This document shows, piece by piece, positions 59,484-64,000 of a DNA stretch of 64,000 nucleotides. The notes below the pieces were generated by a model. The model was given only the letters and a program-made list of their open reading frames with translations, was not told the DNA's origin and did no database searches. The position numbers were made by a program, and so were the translations under genes. The DNA comes from Verrucomicrobia bacterium UBA6015 (GTDB taxonomy: Bacteria > Verrucomicrobiota > Kiritimatiellia > UBA8416), in the NCBI GenBank assembly GCA_002428045.1, contig DIZZ01000281.1, positions 1,634 through 65,633 on the forward strand. Direction: 5' to 3'. Numbering within the stretch: the first letter of the stretch is position 1; each line of letters begins with the position of its first letter.

Positions 59484-60290
59484 ATGAAATGGACATTGCC
59501 AATTGCCTCCTATCTCGGATTGCTTGTCACCGCAACCGTTGCCACCGCCCAGGTCGATGACCCACGCGGGGAGACGGCGCGTTCACGATCAATTACTCTC
59601 GGTAATGGCGTCGCCCTGGAGATGGTCTGGATCCCGCCGGGCACCTTCACCATGGGCAGTCCGGAGAGCGAGCAGGGGCGCGATAATGACGAGAAGGAGC
59701 ACCGCGTGACGCTGACCAAAGGCTTCTGGATGGGCAAATTCGAGGTTACACAGGAACAGTGGCAAGCGGTGATGGGTAATAACCCGAGTGAGTTCAAGGG
59801 GGCGAAGCTCCCCGTGGAGCAGGTCTCATGGGACGACTGCCAGTCGTTTCTCCAGAATCTGAACAGGGTGTCGGGCATCGGGCGTCGGGTGTCCTTGGGT
59901 CAGTTCCGGCTACCGACGGAGGCGGAGTGGGAATATGCGTGCCGTGCGGGGAGGACGGTGCCGTATGCAGGTGATCTGGCCGTGATGGGCTGGTATGACA
60001 AGATCAGCGAGAGCAAAACGCATCCGGTGGGTCAGAAGCAGCCGAACGCCTGGGGACTCTACGATATGCACGGGAATGTATGGGAGTGGTGCCAGGACAG
60101 AGGCGGTGATTATCCGGGGTGCGCGGTGACGGATCCCGAGGGGGCACTCTCGGGATCGTTTCGCGTGTTCCGGGGCGGGAGTTGGGACTTCACCGCCGTG
60201 GGCTGCCGATCGGCGAACCGCCTCAGGTATGTGCCGATCTACCGGTACGACGACCTAGGCGTGCGCGTGGTTCTTGCACCGGCTCCATAA
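59484..60290 (+). CDS. Secreted formylglycine-generating-enzyme-family (SUMF1/FGE-sulfatase domain) protein
   Basis: Signal peptide and RBS AAGGAG. WMGKFEVTQEQW...RLPTEAEWEYACRAG...FRGGSWDF...GVRVVLA. Confidence 0.7.
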   Translation: MKWTLPIASYLGLLVTATVATAQVDDPRGETARSRSITLGNGVALEMVWIPPGTFTMGSPESEQGRDNDEKEHRVTLTKGFWMGKFEVTQEQWQAVMGNNPSEFKGAKLPVEQVSWDDCQSFLQNLNRVSGIGRRVSLGQFRLPTEAEWEYACRAGRTVPYAGDLAVMGWYDKISESKTHPVGQKQPNAWGLYDMHGNVWEWCQDRGGDYPGCAVTDPEGALSGSFRVFRGGSWDFTAVGCRSANRLRYVPIYRYDDLGVRVVLAPAP

Positions 60291-61575
60291 CGCGTGAGGG
60301 AGATGCGATCAGGACGTCGCCTTCGGTGCGGGCAGGAACGCAGGTGACTAGCGTGTTGCGGGGCAAGTGTATGCCGTGGATGCATACCGGCAGGTAGTGA
60401 TCCGTCCAGCCGATCGACTGGTCTGGGTTGTCGGTATGTTCGGTCAACAGGGTGACCGGCTGGCCGATGAAACGACAGGCAAATGCCAAACGCTTGGCAT
60501 GCCCGAGGGCGATCAATTCGGCTGCTCGTGCTTTTCTGACGCTTGCAGGTATCTGGTCTCTCATCCCGGCGGCGGGAGTGCCCCGGCGGAGACTGTAGGT
60601 AAAGACGTGCAGGTTACTAAAGGGCAGCGACTCAATCAGTGTCGCCGTATGGCGGAATGCCTGCTCGCTTTCTCCGGGAAACCCGACAATGACGTCGGTG
60701 CCGAGTCCGATATCCGGCACCTTTTCCCTCGCGTATTCGACCGTGGCCCGGTATTGATCCGGCGTGTAGCGGCGCTGCATCCGGCGCAGCACCTCCGCGT
60801 CACCGCTCTGGAGTGGCAGGTGCAGGAACCGACACAGCTTTTTTGACTGCGCCATGAAGTCGATGATCTCTCGCTCAACGGTGGTGCTTTCGATCGACCC
60901 GATGCGCAGCCGTTCCAGACCGATGATGGATTCGGCCGCCGCGAGCAGATCGATCAGCCCGTAGGGCGGATCACGGTAGCAGCCCAGATTGGCGGCCGCC
61001 AGCGTGATCTCGCGGTGCCCGGCATCGACCAGTCGCTGGATCTCGTCGATGATCTGCAGGAACGGTCTGCTGCGGGGGGCTCCGCGTGTCTCGGGGACGA
61101 TGCAGTAGCTGCACCGGAAATCGCATCCATCCTGTACTTTGACCAGGGCGCGCGTGGTCGAGAAGACGGGAGCCCCTATACGTTGAGGATTGGTTTGCTT
61201 GGCTGATGGCGCTGTCGGGGGCGTCGGCATGGACGCCACCCGTGCCGCGAGCTGCACAGGCAGGTTGAACTTCTGAGCCTGATCGGCGATGAGATCGGCA
61301 CCGGTGGCGGCCTTCAGTGCGTCGCCGTTGTGCTCAACGGCACAGCCCGCCAGCACGACCAGTCGGGCGCCCTGGCGGCGGGCACGGCGGGCCCACTGGG
61401 CACAATCGCTTTCGGCGCGCTGGGTAATCGTGCAGGTGTTGATCACGGCCACGTCGCATGCGCTGCCAAAATCTACCACCTGCCATCCCGCCATATCAAA
61501 TTGCTCGTTGATCTGGGCCGTTTCCGCCTGGTTCAGGCGGCAGCCGATCGTCTTGAAGGATACCGAGTAGGGCAT
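60223..61575 (-). CDS. mtaB: tRNA methylthiotransferase, MtaB-like (MTTase-N + radical SAM + TRAM)
   Basis: KTIGCRLNQAETAQ (MTTase N-terminus), CDFRCSYC (Cx3Cx2C), and a TRAM-like C-terminus. An unusual Ala/Pro-rich linker separates the N-terminal domain from the radical-SAM core. Confidence 0.7.
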   Translation of the reverse strand: MPYSVSFKTIGCRLNQAETAQINEQFDMAGWQVVDFGSACDVAVINTCTITQRAESDCAQWARRARRQGARLVVLAGCAVEHNGDALKAATGADLIADQAQKFNLPVQLAARVASMPTPPTAPSAKQTNPQRIGAPVFSTTRALVKVQDGCDFRCSYCIVPETRGAPRSRPFLQIIDEIQRLVDAGHREITLAAANLGCYRDPPYGLIDLLAAAESIIGLERLRIGSIESTTVEREIIDFMAQSKKLCRFLHLPLQSGDAEVLRRMQRRYTPDQYRATVEYAREKVPDIGLGTDVIVGFPGESEQAFRHTATLIESLPFSNLHVFTYSLRRGTPAAGMRDQIPASVRKARAAELIALGHAKRLAFACRFIGQPVTLLTEHTDNPDQSIGWTDHYLPVCIHGIHLPRNTLVTCVPARTEGDVLIASPSRVMEPVQEPRARLGRRTGRSAHT

Positions 61576-61583
61576 GGTATAAC

Positions 61584-62729
61584 TCAGCGTTGGTGCGAGA
61601 AGACCGCCTGCGTGTCCAGGGTCTGCAGTCGCAGGTCGATTTCAGGTTTTTGTACATGGGTGGTCAGCAGGGCGCTGGCGATGTCATCGGCGTTGCGGGT
61701 GGGCACGATCAGGGTTCCGATTTCCCTGGCGCCGTCGATCTCCGTGCGTGCGTCGGCCCGCAGTCGGCGTACGGTGGACACGGTGGCGGCACCCGCACCG
61801 GCCTGCATCGCGCGTTGAACCAGTAGATCGGCACCTCCTTCCGCGCAGATAAATGTGATTTCGCGGTAGTGGTGCTGGAGCCGCATGCCCTCATGGCGTG
61901 CAATCTGGCGGTCGGCGGCACGGAATCGCTGGCGCCATGCGGTTCCGTCTTTAAGGTCATCGACGGCGGCGATGATCTGTTCAATACTGGCGGCATGCTG
62001 CGGCTTGCCGATGCGCAACATCGGGTCGATCCGTCCGAAGCAGACGGGCGTACGGTACAGGAACCCACCCCCGGGGCGATCCATGTGGGTCGTCTCGACC
62101 AGTAGTCGCAAGATGCCGTCGGCATCATGCGCAGGGACCACGAGGTGTACAATCTCCTTTTCGGGAGGAATCGTAATCCGCAAAAGCCCAAGCCGGTCAC
62201 GGATTCCGGTGCCGATGCCGAGACTGACGATTGGAGCTCCAGCCCGCAGCTCGAGCGTCTCTCTGACAAAGGCGTTTTCGTTGCCGGCACCGGAGAGGAT
62301 CGCCGTGATGAGGGCGAAGTCGGTCAATAGTCCGCTTTTCCCTTTCGATCCCAAGCTGCCAAGCGCGGTGCTGGACAGGCCGGTCAGAGACGTCCCATAG
62401 TCGTCGATATTCTGGGCATAAATGGACCCCCGTCCGGATGCCGAGAGTTCGATGGCGTCGATCAAGCCGTTCATTACCGTGATGGCAACGTCACGGTGAC
62501 AGGTGATTCGGAAGATATCGGTGGGGGAATCATTCAGGCTGGTAGCCATGCCGGGAAGCGGCCATGGGCGGGGAACCGCCTGCTGGCGTACGCAGCGCGC
62601 ACTCTGCACGAGGACGTCGGGAATCCCGAACGCCTCCAGCGCCTCGGCCGCCCTGGACGCCAGCCGTTGGTGTACACAGCAGGTGATACGGGTGGCGGGC
62701 CTGGCTTGAGGAAGCGGGGAGTCACTCAC
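61584..62729 (-). CDS. Multi-repeat P-II-like (GlnB-like ferredoxin-fold) protein
   Basis: Repeated segments aligning to P-II beta-alpha-beta units, e.g. REITFICAEGGADLLVQRAMQAGAGAATVSTV...EIGTLIVPTRNADDIASALLTT and IVHLVVPAHDADGILRLLVETTHMDRPGGGFLY. Start proposed at GTG preceded by AGGAGG, overlapping the upstream stop (GTGAGTGA). The track's upstream ATG extension looks non-proteinaceous. Confidence 0.5.
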   Translation of the reverse strand: MSDSPLPQARPATRITCCVHQRLASRAAEALEAFGIPDVLVQSARCVRQQAVPRPWPLPGMATSLNDSPTDIFRITCHRDVAITVMNGLIDAIELSASGRGSIYAQNIDDYGTSLTGLSSTALGSLGSKGKSGLLTDFALITAILSGAGNENAFVRETLELRAGAPIVSLGIGTGIRDRLGLLRITIPPEKEIVHLVVPAHDADGILRLLVETTHMDRPGGGFLYRTPVCFGRIDPMLRIGKPQHAASIEQIIAAVDDLKDGTAWRQRFRAADRQIARHEGMRLQHHYREITFICAEGGADLLVQRAMQAGAGAATVSTVRRLRADARTEIDGAREIGTLIVPTRNADDIASALLTTHVQKPEIDLRLQTLDTQAVFSHQR

Positions 62730-63942
62730 CGGCGGCCTCCTGACTGATGGCCCGGAAAACCCGACGTTGTCGCGATCGAATGACCATTCCGTAAAGCAGG
62801 ACGCTGAGTACTGGATAGGCTGACGCCATGGCCAGCAATCCGAACCCATCGGATACATCCACGGCACTCCCTATCCCGAAGCCCATGGCCAGCACGAGGG
62901 GAACGGTCACCGGTCCGGTGGTGACGCCCCCGGAATCCCAGGCGATGGCCGCGAAATCCTCTTCGCTGATCCAGGTCAGGGGCAGCAGCAGCAGGTAAGG
63001 TGGCACGAGCAGCCAGAGGATCGGGATATCATACAGGATCCTGATCACCCCGACCACAACGCCGGTGCCCACGCCCGCCGCCACCGCATGGATGACTCCT
63101 CTGCTACGGATGGTTCCCGCCGAGATAGTTTCCACGGAACGTCCCAGTGCGGCCAGTGCCGGTTCCGCCAAGGTGGCGCCGTAACCCAGACCGAAGGCAA
63201 AAAGGAAAACCAGGCCGATCCCGGCCAGGGTCAAGCGCGGGCCGAATAGCGGTGGACGCTTGACGACATGCTCATAGCGGTGGTTGACCGCGTCATACTG
63301 GGCGGGGTCAAAGGCAACCGCCTCGGTGCCGCCACGTGGCGTATCGAGGAAAAAGAATTGTTCGCACCTGCCCTCGGCGGTATGGCGGGTATACACTGAT
63401 TCGGGATGGAACGGCTCGATCAGGATTTGCCCCTCCACCTTGTCGATACTACGGAACAAGCGGGGCAGGGGACGCCCTACCTGGTTCCCGAGCGTCACTA
63501 GGCCGATCTGGATTCCGCTGGTCAACACGGCCATGCCGATCAGTGACATGCCGATACCAAGGATCACCTCGTCATGATGGCGCGGGCGATCCCGCAGCAG
63601 CACCAGTACCCCCAGCAGGAGCAGGGTCAGGGGGACGATCGTCCGCAACGCCCCGATGCATTGGCTCCTGAAAATCGTGGAGATGGGATCGCCGGCATCG
63701 TTTTCCAGAGCGACTGGAGCGTTGTTCAATGGGCTGTGCAGAAGCTCCCGCTCCTCCCTGGATGCGTATTGGTTGATCCACTCAGGAAGCGGCATGCTGG
63801 CAAGCAAGTGGCGCCGGTTCGTGGAGGTTGCCAGACTCGTGACCGCCTTGAGGTATGCGCCCTCGTCTGGATAGCAGGACCGACGAGAGGGGGCACCAGC
63901 ATGGCGGAAGGCATGCTGCCGCAGTGCGGCTTCCGACCCCAT
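62722..63942 (-). CDS. Polytopic membrane protein, DUF1538-like (start uncertain; frame stays open to the window edge)
   Basis: Multiple TM helices (LLLLGVLVLL, LAGIGLVFLFAFGLGYG, GVGTGVVVGVIRILY, VTVPLVLAMGFGIG). No in-frame stop between 63942 and 64000 on this strand. Confidence 0.45.
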   Translation of the reverse strand: MGSEAALRQHAFRHAGAPSRRSCYPDEGAYLKAVTSLATSTNRRHLLASMPLPEWINQYASREERELLHSPLNNAPVALENDAGDPISTIFRSQCIGALRTIVPLTLLLLGVLVLLRDRPRHHDEVILGIGMSLIGMAVLTSGIQIGLVTLGNQVGRPLPRLFRSIDKVEGQILIEPFHPESVYTRHTAEGRCEQFFFLDTPRGGTEAVAFDPAQYDAVNHRYEHVVKRPPLFGPRLTLAGIGLVFLFAFGLGYGATLAEPALAALGRSVETISAGTIRSRGVIHAVAAGVGTGVVVGVIRILYDIPILWLLVPPYLLLLPLTWISEEDFAAIAWDSGGVTTGPVTVPLVLAMGFGIGSAVDVSDGFGLLAMASAYPVLSVLLYGMVIRSRQRRVFRAISQEAAGE

Positions 63943-64000
63943 CAGCGCCAGGGCGGCCGGGCGATTTCCTGGCGAGAAAAATGAGGCTTCATCGACCGGT

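Follow-up and report, generated by a model that had tools for sequence, protein, structure and literature searches.

What could be the task of a P-II-like protein that is made as a single chain of three unequal units and encoded directly behind a membrane protein? P-II proteins count among the most widespread processors of signals across bacteria, archaea and plants; their accepted action depends on threefold symmetry. The gene in question lies near the end of a stretch of 64,000 nucleotides (nt) from Verrucomicrobia bacterium UBA6015 (contig DIZZ01000281.1, positions 1,634 to 65,633), referred to below as the window, and encodes a protein of 381 amino acids (aa); the gene directly upstream on the same strand encodes a membrane protein of the DUF1538 family. 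An earlier note, prepared from the letters of the window, had proposed a multi-repeat P-II-like protein translationally coupled to a DUF1538-like membrane protein. The 381-aa protein is P-II-like in fold and by remote homology and is not a canonical member of the GlnB/GlnK family. It is proposed, at a probability of roughly 0.6, that it acts as a single-chain pseudo-trimeric regulator, coupled to the translation of a transporter, which it would gate from the cytoplasm under the control of an effector.

The two genes and their junction are arranged as follows (window coordinates, basis of assignment in brackets):

61584..62729, minus strand: gene of the 381-aa three-unit P-II-like protein, stop codon at 61584-61586 (translation, homologues, AlphaFold2 model)
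62722..62729, minus strand: start/stop overlap of 8 nt, GTGAGTGA, in which the P-II-like gene starts and the membrane gene ends with its TGA (sequence)
62736..62741, minus strand: Shine-Dalgarno motif AGGAGG, within the 3' end of the membrane gene and 6 nt before the GTG (sequence)
62722..64000, minus strand: 3' part of the fused two-repeat DUF1538 gene (residues 268-692 of 692), open to the window edge (Pfam)

On the minus strand, which carries both genes, the junction reads ...CAGTC AGGAGG CCGCCG GTG AGT GAC TCC..., with the GTG of the P-II-like gene at 62729-62727 and the TGA of the membrane gene at 62724-62722. The longest open reading frame (ORF) in the frame of the P-II-like gene runs for 427 aa from a GTG at 62867. 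Its 46 extra N-terminal residues are rich in tryptophan and proline, overlap the membrane gene in another frame and are present in no homologue examined; the earlier note had dismissed such an extension as frame noise and had placed the start at the GTG that follows AGGAGG within the upstream stop codon, and both points are borne out. The N-termini of 42 aligned homologues coincide with the GTG at 62729, and use of the next in-frame start, at codon 41, would delete the conserved first strand. An identical 381-aa protein (P0001) has been called in three Joint Genome Institute (JGI) metagenomes. The 406-aa ORF with an ATG start that appears in the ORF listing (62722-63942, minus strand) is not the membrane gene; its frame is open to the window edge, and the true start of the protein lies 286 residues upstream of that ATG. 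On longer contigs the membrane gene was found complete (L001:7930-10008, 692 aa; P0121, named as a protein of a Verrucomicrobia metagenome-assembled genome (MAG), is identical), in agreement with the expectation that it continues past position 64000.

Relatives of the 381-aa protein were collected from a search space of 5.8 billion proteins, which gave 187 relatives that align over their full length (about 370-385 aa), and by running a profile exhaustively against 1.84 billion cluster representatives, which gave 239 clusters at 50% identity at E ≤ 1e-30, 344 at E ≤ 1e-10 and 825 at E ≤ 0.001. The NCBI records listed for these relatives are mostly named hypothetical. Searches of Pfam and NCBIfam returned no significant match for the protein, the only entries being noise (MxiC_C, PtrA). 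Of the Pfam families named in the earlier note, DUF1538 was found on the membrane ORF, and the P-II family PF00543 had no match in the window protein, while 8 of the 42 homologues do match it (best E 1.2e-5).

An AlphaFold2 model of the protein (m407a049a53aa), built from 42 sequences, has a mean predicted local distance difference test score (pLDDT) of 83 and a predicted template modelling score (pTM) of 0.84. It contains three beta-alpha-beta-beta-alpha-beta units at residues 10-110, 138-229 and 288-373, each in the order of P-II, and a two-helix insertion at residues 249-276. A double beta-alpha-beta fold is recognisable, in which a T-loop joins beta2 to beta3 and a B-loop precedes beta4. 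Comparison with the Protein Data Bank (PDB) by Foldseek returned GlnB/GlnK chains with a probability of 1.00 and template modelling (TM) scores of 0.6-0.7 over about 100 residues; the protein thus has fold similarity to solved members of the P-II-like superfamily, which comprises SbtB, CPII, CutA, DUF3240 and others. The chain of 381 aa with its three non-identical units differs from the canonical P-II form, a homotrimer subunit of about 112 aa. Its segments were delimited as follows:

62376..62708, minus strand: unit 1, residues 8-118 (end-to-end alignment with canonical P-II)
62022..62330, minus strand: unit 2, residues 134-236 (hhalign to unit 1; hidden Markov model (HMM) of DUF1538-linked P-II proteins)
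61881..62021, minus strand: two-helix insertion between units 2 and 3, residues 237-283 (conservation; pLDDT 51-59)
61587..61880, minus strand: unit 3, residues 284-381, degenerate (order of strands and helices in the model; weak in-register P-II matches)

Judged by profile comparison, the three units are homologous beyond chance. Units 1 and 2 align with each other over 91 columns (hhalign probability 96%, E 4e-9), and unit 3 matches both of them more weakly, still in register. The best PDB sequence match of every unit profile is a P-II protein, again in register. Residues 13-113 of the family profile align to residues 3-102 of P-II (E 0.003, PDB profile search), and R48/Q49, P69 and G99/G101 of unit 1 thereby correspond to R38/Q39, P57 and G87/G89. 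The best matches of unit 2 are GlnK proteins (K191 corresponds to K58 of GlnK1, G220/G222 to G87/G89), and that of unit 3 is the PII protein of Arabidopsis, which is a weak match in register. The segment EIGTLIVPTRNADDIASALL, which had been singled out from the letters as a counterpart of beta3-alpha2 of P-II, was located in unit 3 at that position by hhalign and by the PDB profile search. The multi-repeat character of the protein is accordingly retained, as three units, on the combined evidence of the AlphaFold2 model, Foldseek and the profile comparisons.

The units are far from equal, as is seen from conservation measured across 77 species-level sequences. Unit 1 has a long, confidently modelled beta2-beta3 hairpin (residues 39-77) with the motif R45-x-V-R48-Q...G-L-P-G60, of which G-L-P-G60 forms the tip, and a B-loop P-G99-R-G101. 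At the T-loop position of unit 2 lies the most conserved stretch of the whole protein, G171-x-G-T-G-I-R177-D-R-L-G-L-L-R-I-T-I-P-P-E-K191-E; the pLDDT falls below 50 at residues 180-184, in line with a flexible loop, and the B-loop reads P-G220-G-G222-F. Unit 3 has a short and variable T-loop and is without a G-x-G B-loop. The protein thus carries two conserved T-loops (units 1 and 2) and a variable one (unit 3), and its two G-x-G B-loops, together with the basic residues R48, R177 and K191 at the base of the T-loops, are kept in at least 95% of the members. The insertion between units 2 and 3 has the consensus H-A-A-S-I-E-Q-I-I-A-A-I-D-x-L-K-x-G-T-x-W-R-K-R-F, in which G241, A246, A247, E250, Q251, A255, D257, T263, W265, R266 and R268 are kept in at least 95% of the members; it is absent from two-domain DUF1538-linked relatives. 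The string GGGFLY in unit 2 was considered as the cyclic di-AMP motif of PstA and was set aside, as it sits in the B-loop (G87-D-G-K-I-F of P-II) and not at the GGFL site of PstA.

Conservation of the gene pair was followed by a scan of GTDB with one genome per species, in which relatives were found in at least 195 genomes; 80 loci were fetched. These span Kiritimatiellia, Lentisphaerae/Victivallales, Verrucomicrobia, many Spirochaetaceae and Riflebacteria, with further carriers among Ozemobacteraceae, Delongbacteria, Bacteroidales and Melainabacteria; cultured carriers include Alkalispirochaeta alkalica DSM 8900, the Kiritimatiellota isolates B12222 and B1221, and Pontiellaceae B12219. The three-unit gene directly follows a fused two-repeat DUF1538 gene (about 650-730 aa) on the same strand in all 80 of the 80 loci with upstream DNA. 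When the ORFs around the pair were all clustered, no third conserved neighbour emerged, and the pair is therefore regarded as a two-gene module.

The start of the three-unit gene overlaps the stop of its partner by 4-17 nt in 73 of the 80 junctions. The 8-nt geometry of the window (NTGNNTRR) is the prevailing type, with 54 loci across phyla; this count includes L079, in which the gene is disrupted further downstream and the junction was read by eye. Overlaps of 11 nt (15 loci), 4 nt (2 loci) and 17 nt (2 loci) were also observed, a spacer of 1-18 nt separates the genes in 6 loci, and the overlap in one locus (L051) is ambiguous. A GGAGG-like motif precedes the start in most of the 80 junctions, usually by 5-10 nt. 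Conservation of this junction across phyla of very different guanine-plus-cytosine content argues that translational coupling has been selected for. The coupled arrangement put forward in the earlier note is hence a property of the family, and neither of the observations that would have spoken against it, namely predictions without a P-II-like fold or homologues with an unrelated, uncoupled start, was made.

In the window organism itself the pair is flanked by ilvD upstream and by a radical-SAM methylthiotransferase-like gene downstream, a setting specific to this organism. The radical-SAM gene (UPF0004 and Radical_SAM, MiaB/MtaB-like; 60223-61575, minus strand) begins 8 nt past the P-II-like gene's stop codon and shares its last 68 nt, in convergent orientation, with the 3' end of an FGE-sulfatase-domain gene (59484-60290, plus strand); neither of these two neighbours is conserved in other loci. 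In a few MAGs of Bacteroidota the genes of the pair are broken into several ORFs. This concerns the P-II-like gene L079:5905-7110 and the DUF1538 genes L069:3852-5912, L076:3826-5912 and L074:3760-5827, and may reflect frameshifts, pseudogenes or assembly errors. Judged by the record names, guts, rumen and anaerobic digesters are the source of several carriers. The codes CSSed, T1Sed, T3Sed, B1Sed, GEM2, DLM2 and PLM2, found in many other MAG names, are presumably those of soda-lake studies, and Alkalispirochaeta alkalica is a carrier as well; such an origin, if correct, might be in keeping with a function in Na+/H+ or pH homeostasis.

The membrane partner was assigned from its in-window part (Pfam DUF1538, PF07556: E 2.6e-56, 190.7 bits, cut-off 22.6), as the earlier note had expected, and from the full-length protein, which reaches 350 bits against the same cut-off of 22.6 with two DUF1538 stretches. 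Its features in the window are the following:

63685..63999, minus strand: helical linker domain between the repeats, residues 268-372 (in-window part), conserved in 37 homologues and predicted to be periplasmic (AlphaFold2)
62725..63684, minus strand: second DUF1538 repeat, residues 373-692 (matched by Pfam over residues 393-673 in full-length numbering)
63241..63474, minus strand: beta-rich insertion of about 78 aa, residues 443-520, between helices 2 and 3 of repeat 2 (alignment; AlphaFold2)

The N- and C-terminal halves are homologous (blastp E 2e-16), with the common motif A-W-D-x-G-x-x-T-T-G-x-V-T-V-P-L-V-L-A, and AWDSGGVTTGPVTVPLVLAMG is present in both repeat 2 and repeat 1. The AlphaFold2 model (md3a7b4ae04ef; pLDDT 83, pTM 0.82) shows short helices at residues 271-355 of the linker (pLDDT about 80-90) and five strands at residues 454-515 of the beta insertion; by alignment, the latter has no counterpart in repeat 1 or in the generic DUF1538 proteins compared. 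Counts of lysine plus arginine in the loops, taken over 37 homologues, fit an inverted arrangement of the two repeats, and one loop of repeat 2 (residues 611-615) misfits it. These counts suggest that repeat 1 has its N-terminus inside and repeat 2 its N-terminus outside, with seven helices each, which would leave both termini of the protein in the cytoplasm; the linker (about 100 aa) and the beta insertion (about 78 aa) are predicted by the positive-inside rule to face the periplasm. The 692-aa protein is probably a 7+7-helix pseudo-dimer of inverted topology and a secondary ion transporter. A sequence search of the PDB gave no match for it, and a Foldseek comparison of the model with the PDB gave none at E ≤ 0.001 (TM at most 0.16); its fold is therefore not assignable to a known transporter class.

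The earlier note had called the membrane family uncharacterised, which holds in part. It is still poorly studied, and the only functionally characterised DUF1538 member that was found, in a family without a solved structure, is UmpAB of Halomonas zhaodongensis, a Na+(Li+,K+)/H+ antiporter consisting of two homologous seven-helix halves that act together (PMC5484666). The paper on UmpAB makes no mention of a P-II partner or gene (PMC5484666). The UmpA and UmpB equivalog models of NCBIfam (NF041627 and NF041628) give the window protein 103.4 and 94.7 bits, far below their cut-offs of 490 and 500.

In order to place the pair within the DUF1538 family, 80 generic DUF1538 loci were fetched from metagenomes (L086-L165), of which 76 had enough downstream DNA. 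P-II-like genes with one or two domains lie directly downstream in 74 of these 76. The pairing is therefore not special to the window; the three-unit single chain is. Fused DUF1538 genes are followed by a two-domain P-II gene in 31 loci and by two single-domain genes in 4 (one-domain P-II genes were not tallied for this class), and split DUF1538 pairs by a one-domain gene in 16, a two-domain gene in 7 and two single-domain genes in 4. Fused genes are mostly combined with a two-domain P-II protein of about 225 aa and split pairs mostly with a single-domain protein of about 110 aa. Both DUF1538 matches in a plasmid collection (L084:3989-6183, L085:3477-4815) are likewise followed, with an overlap of 4 nt, by a gene named 'P-II family nitrogen regulator'; its products are WP_277367899.1 in Chelativorans sp. 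AA-79 (112 aa) and WP_212821690.1 in Vescimonas fastidiosa (224 aa, two domains). None of the 10 generic DUF1538 loci compared with the UmpAB equivalog models reached the cut-off. Full-text searches of the literature found no paper on the DUF1538-P-II pairing or on a single-chain multi-unit P-II protein.

An independent HMM, built solely from P-II genes that adjoin other DUF1538 genes, matches the window protein with a full-sequence E of 5.6e-16. At an independent E-value (i-E) below 0.01 it recognises unit 2 in 77 of 77 members (median i-E 2e-13), unit 1 in 62 of 77 and unit 3 in 27 of 77 (best i-E 9e-5). In the window family the counterpart of the two-domain proteins is units 2 and 3 (hhalign 98.5%, E 3.7e-15), unit 3 being matched by the C-terminal domain of the two-domain proteins; in this alignment the helical segment is an insertion and unit 1 an added unit. 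An alternative register, in which the N-domain of the Vescimonas protein aligned with unit 1 and its C-domain with unit 2, was dropped, as the family alignment to units 2 and 3 scores much better. Counted by units, the series runs from one to three, and the window protein is its three-unit member.

The proposed regulator could operate in the following way. Ribosomes that terminate on the transporter gene would restart at the overlapping GTG, a coupling that would tie the synthesis of the two proteins together, plausibly near a ratio of 1:1. The three units would pack as one pseudo-trimer, which may dock on the cytoplasmic face of the transporter by way of unit 1's rigid hairpin and unit 2's flexible GTGIRDRLGLLRITIPPEKE loop, each conserved T-loop possibly engaging one of the two non-equivalent DUF1538 repeats. 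A small effector would bind in clefts between the units, for which the two clefts with intact G-x-G B-loops are candidates, and its binding would change transport, most likely by closing the transporter as in GlnK-AmtB and SbtB-SbtA. An adenine nucleotide is the default guess for this effector, with key canonical contacts to ATP and 2-oxoglutarate missing. Unit 3, its features lost, would mainly complete the three-unit scaffold.

Several observations weigh against this proposal in whole or in part. K90 of P-II is replaced by serine in unit 1 and by phenylalanine in unit 2, an equivalent of K58 is retained in unit 2 only, and the equivalents of R101 and R103 are doubtful; with the canonical ligand contacts thus incomplete, the effector may be something other than ATP, ADP or 2-oxoglutarate, or may not exist at all. 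Neither of the P-II signature patterns, Y-[KR]-G-[AS]-[AE]-Y and [ST]-x3-G-[DY]-G-[KR]-[IV]-[FW]-[LIVM], occurs in any of the 77 members, whereas the control P-II protein 1hwu has both, and the protein is therefore P-II-like, yet placed outside the GlnB/GlnK family. The extra domains of the membrane protein, predicted to be periplasmic, do not explain why this subfamily should need a third P-II unit, and UmpAB is only a distant relative, so that the ion transported by the window protein is a guess. That the 381-aa protein binds and closes the transporter is suggested by synteny and coupling, and its packing as a pseudo-trimer by the behaviour of the fold family and by the pTM of 0.84, a value which, in a chain of three domains, points to a compact arrangement modelled with confidence.

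The same observations bear on the alternatives. If the protein were a constitutive structural subunit, that is, an obligatory cytoplasmic part of the transporter required for assembly, stability or the transport cycle and without metabolite sensing, then the occurrence of P-II genes after DUF1538 in nearly all generic loci, with coupling as the norm, would be just what is expected of a fixed subunit, and the loss of the canonical ATP/2-oxoglutarate contacts and of the P-II signatures would cause no difficulty. The conservation of at least 95% in the G-x-G B-loops and in R48, R177 and K191 is, however, hard to explain without a ligand or switching, and UmpAB, which may have a P-II partner or none, gave antiport activity alone in E. 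coli (PMC5484666); a purely structural role is thus considered unlikely. It is also conceivable that the membrane protein is a sensor or dock and that the output of the P-II-like protein is directed to another target, an enzyme or a regulator, in the style of AmtB-GlnK. That AmtB controls other targets by sequestering GlnK is well established, and the highly conserved insertion at residues 237-283, modelled at low confidence, offers an extra surface without an assigned use. No third gene is kept near the pair in the 80 loci, however, and a two-gene module coupled 1:1 and set in unrelated genomic surroundings suggests that the two proteins suffice, which makes such a relay distinctly unlikely.

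A role as a cytoplasmic binder or chaperone of the transported ion or of a small molecule, of the CutA or YkoF kind and without regulatory function, is very improbable: the profiles match P-II proper and the DUF1538-linked P-II proteins, with T-loop and B-loop motifs in register, and not CutA, and conserved metal sites of cysteine or histidine are absent, H245 being kept in only about 90% of the members. The lack of a significant Pfam or NCBIfam match could finally be taken as a sign of an artefact, with repeats arisen by chance or an ORF or start mis-called; 239 clusters at E ≤ 1e-30, a uniform length, conservation over the full length, the kept start geometry and a confident model leave this explanation scarcely credible. 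Preference is therefore given to the pseudo-trimeric regulator of transport. A more far-reaching version of it, to which somewhat less than even odds are assigned, would hold that the P-II fold, so far known as a symmetric trimer acting on symmetric targets, has here become an asymmetric single chain that places its two T-loops on the halves of the inverted-repeat transporter, likewise a single chain, with the third unit as a scaffold, and that nearly the whole DUF1538 family is gated by P-II proteins of one to three units with an effector other than ATP/2-oxoglutarate.

With three unequal units in a single chain, the protein breaks with the rule of symmetric trimers that holds in the superfamily. 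Were the proposal true, the P-II fold would have been adapted to a target without threefold symmetry, and each T-loop and each ligand cleft would be open to separate mutation, which is impossible in a homotrimer. The near-constant presence of a P-II gene after DUF1538 genes suggests metabolic control of DUF1538 activity, and the published work on UmpAB may have dealt with a transporter without its regulator. A large transporter-P-II partnership, described in no paper in the literature searched, would then have come to light, with an effector unlike the canonical ATP/2-oxoglutarate pair. P-II-type regulators encoded beside the transporters they control are a known kind; what is new here is the single chain of three units.

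Among known systems, GlnK-AmtB resembles the window pair in that one operon holds a transporter gene and, behind it, a gene of P-II type. In that system the T-loop is inserted into the cytoplasmic face and closes the transporter, which by analogy is the mode expected for the window pair. The homotrimer of GlnK, with chains of 112 aa, matches the trimeric AmtB, whereas one chain with three unequal units would here face a single membrane protein of two repeats, which is unrelated to Amt (Pfam gives DUF1538 only, with no structural match in the PDB at E ≤ 0.001), and homology of the membrane partner to Amt or SbtA was not found. SbtB is the P-II-like regulator of the cyanobacterial bicarbonate transporter SbtA and a homotrimer with a redox-regulated C-terminal R-loop; no relation at the sequence level between SbtB/SbtA and the window pair was detected. 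The logic of SbtA/SbtB and AmtB/GlnK, invoked in the earlier note, thus applies to the window pair as an analogy. NifI1/NifI2 of methanogens provide a precedent for a P-II assembly of non-identical units (PDB 9p1x, with two P-II chain types) and differ from the window protein in that their chains are separate, without fusion, and their target is nitrogenase. Entry 9p1x had been considered as a possible DUF1538 complex and was rejected, being the methanogen nitrogenase-NifI complex; a paper on a 'PII-like' protein of Borrelia concerns YitT/DUF2179 and is unrelated.

On the membrane side, UmpA and UmpB occur as two separate chains, each about 250-270 aa long, and the window protein fuses such halves; compared with generic DUF1538 proteins it has an extra linker domain and a beta insertion. 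Close likeness is also seen to the one- and two-domain DUF1538-linked P-II proteins, whose genes, like that of the window, stand directly after a DUF1538 gene and usually overlap it, and which have in common with the window protein the T-loop motif G-x-G-T/I-G...I-x-I-x-P-E-K-E-I/V-V and the B-loop motif P-G-H/R-G. From these relatives the window protein is distinguished by its three units (about 375 aa), by an added N-terminal unit with a different T-loop, by a conserved helical insertion of 47 aa and by a degenerate third unit.

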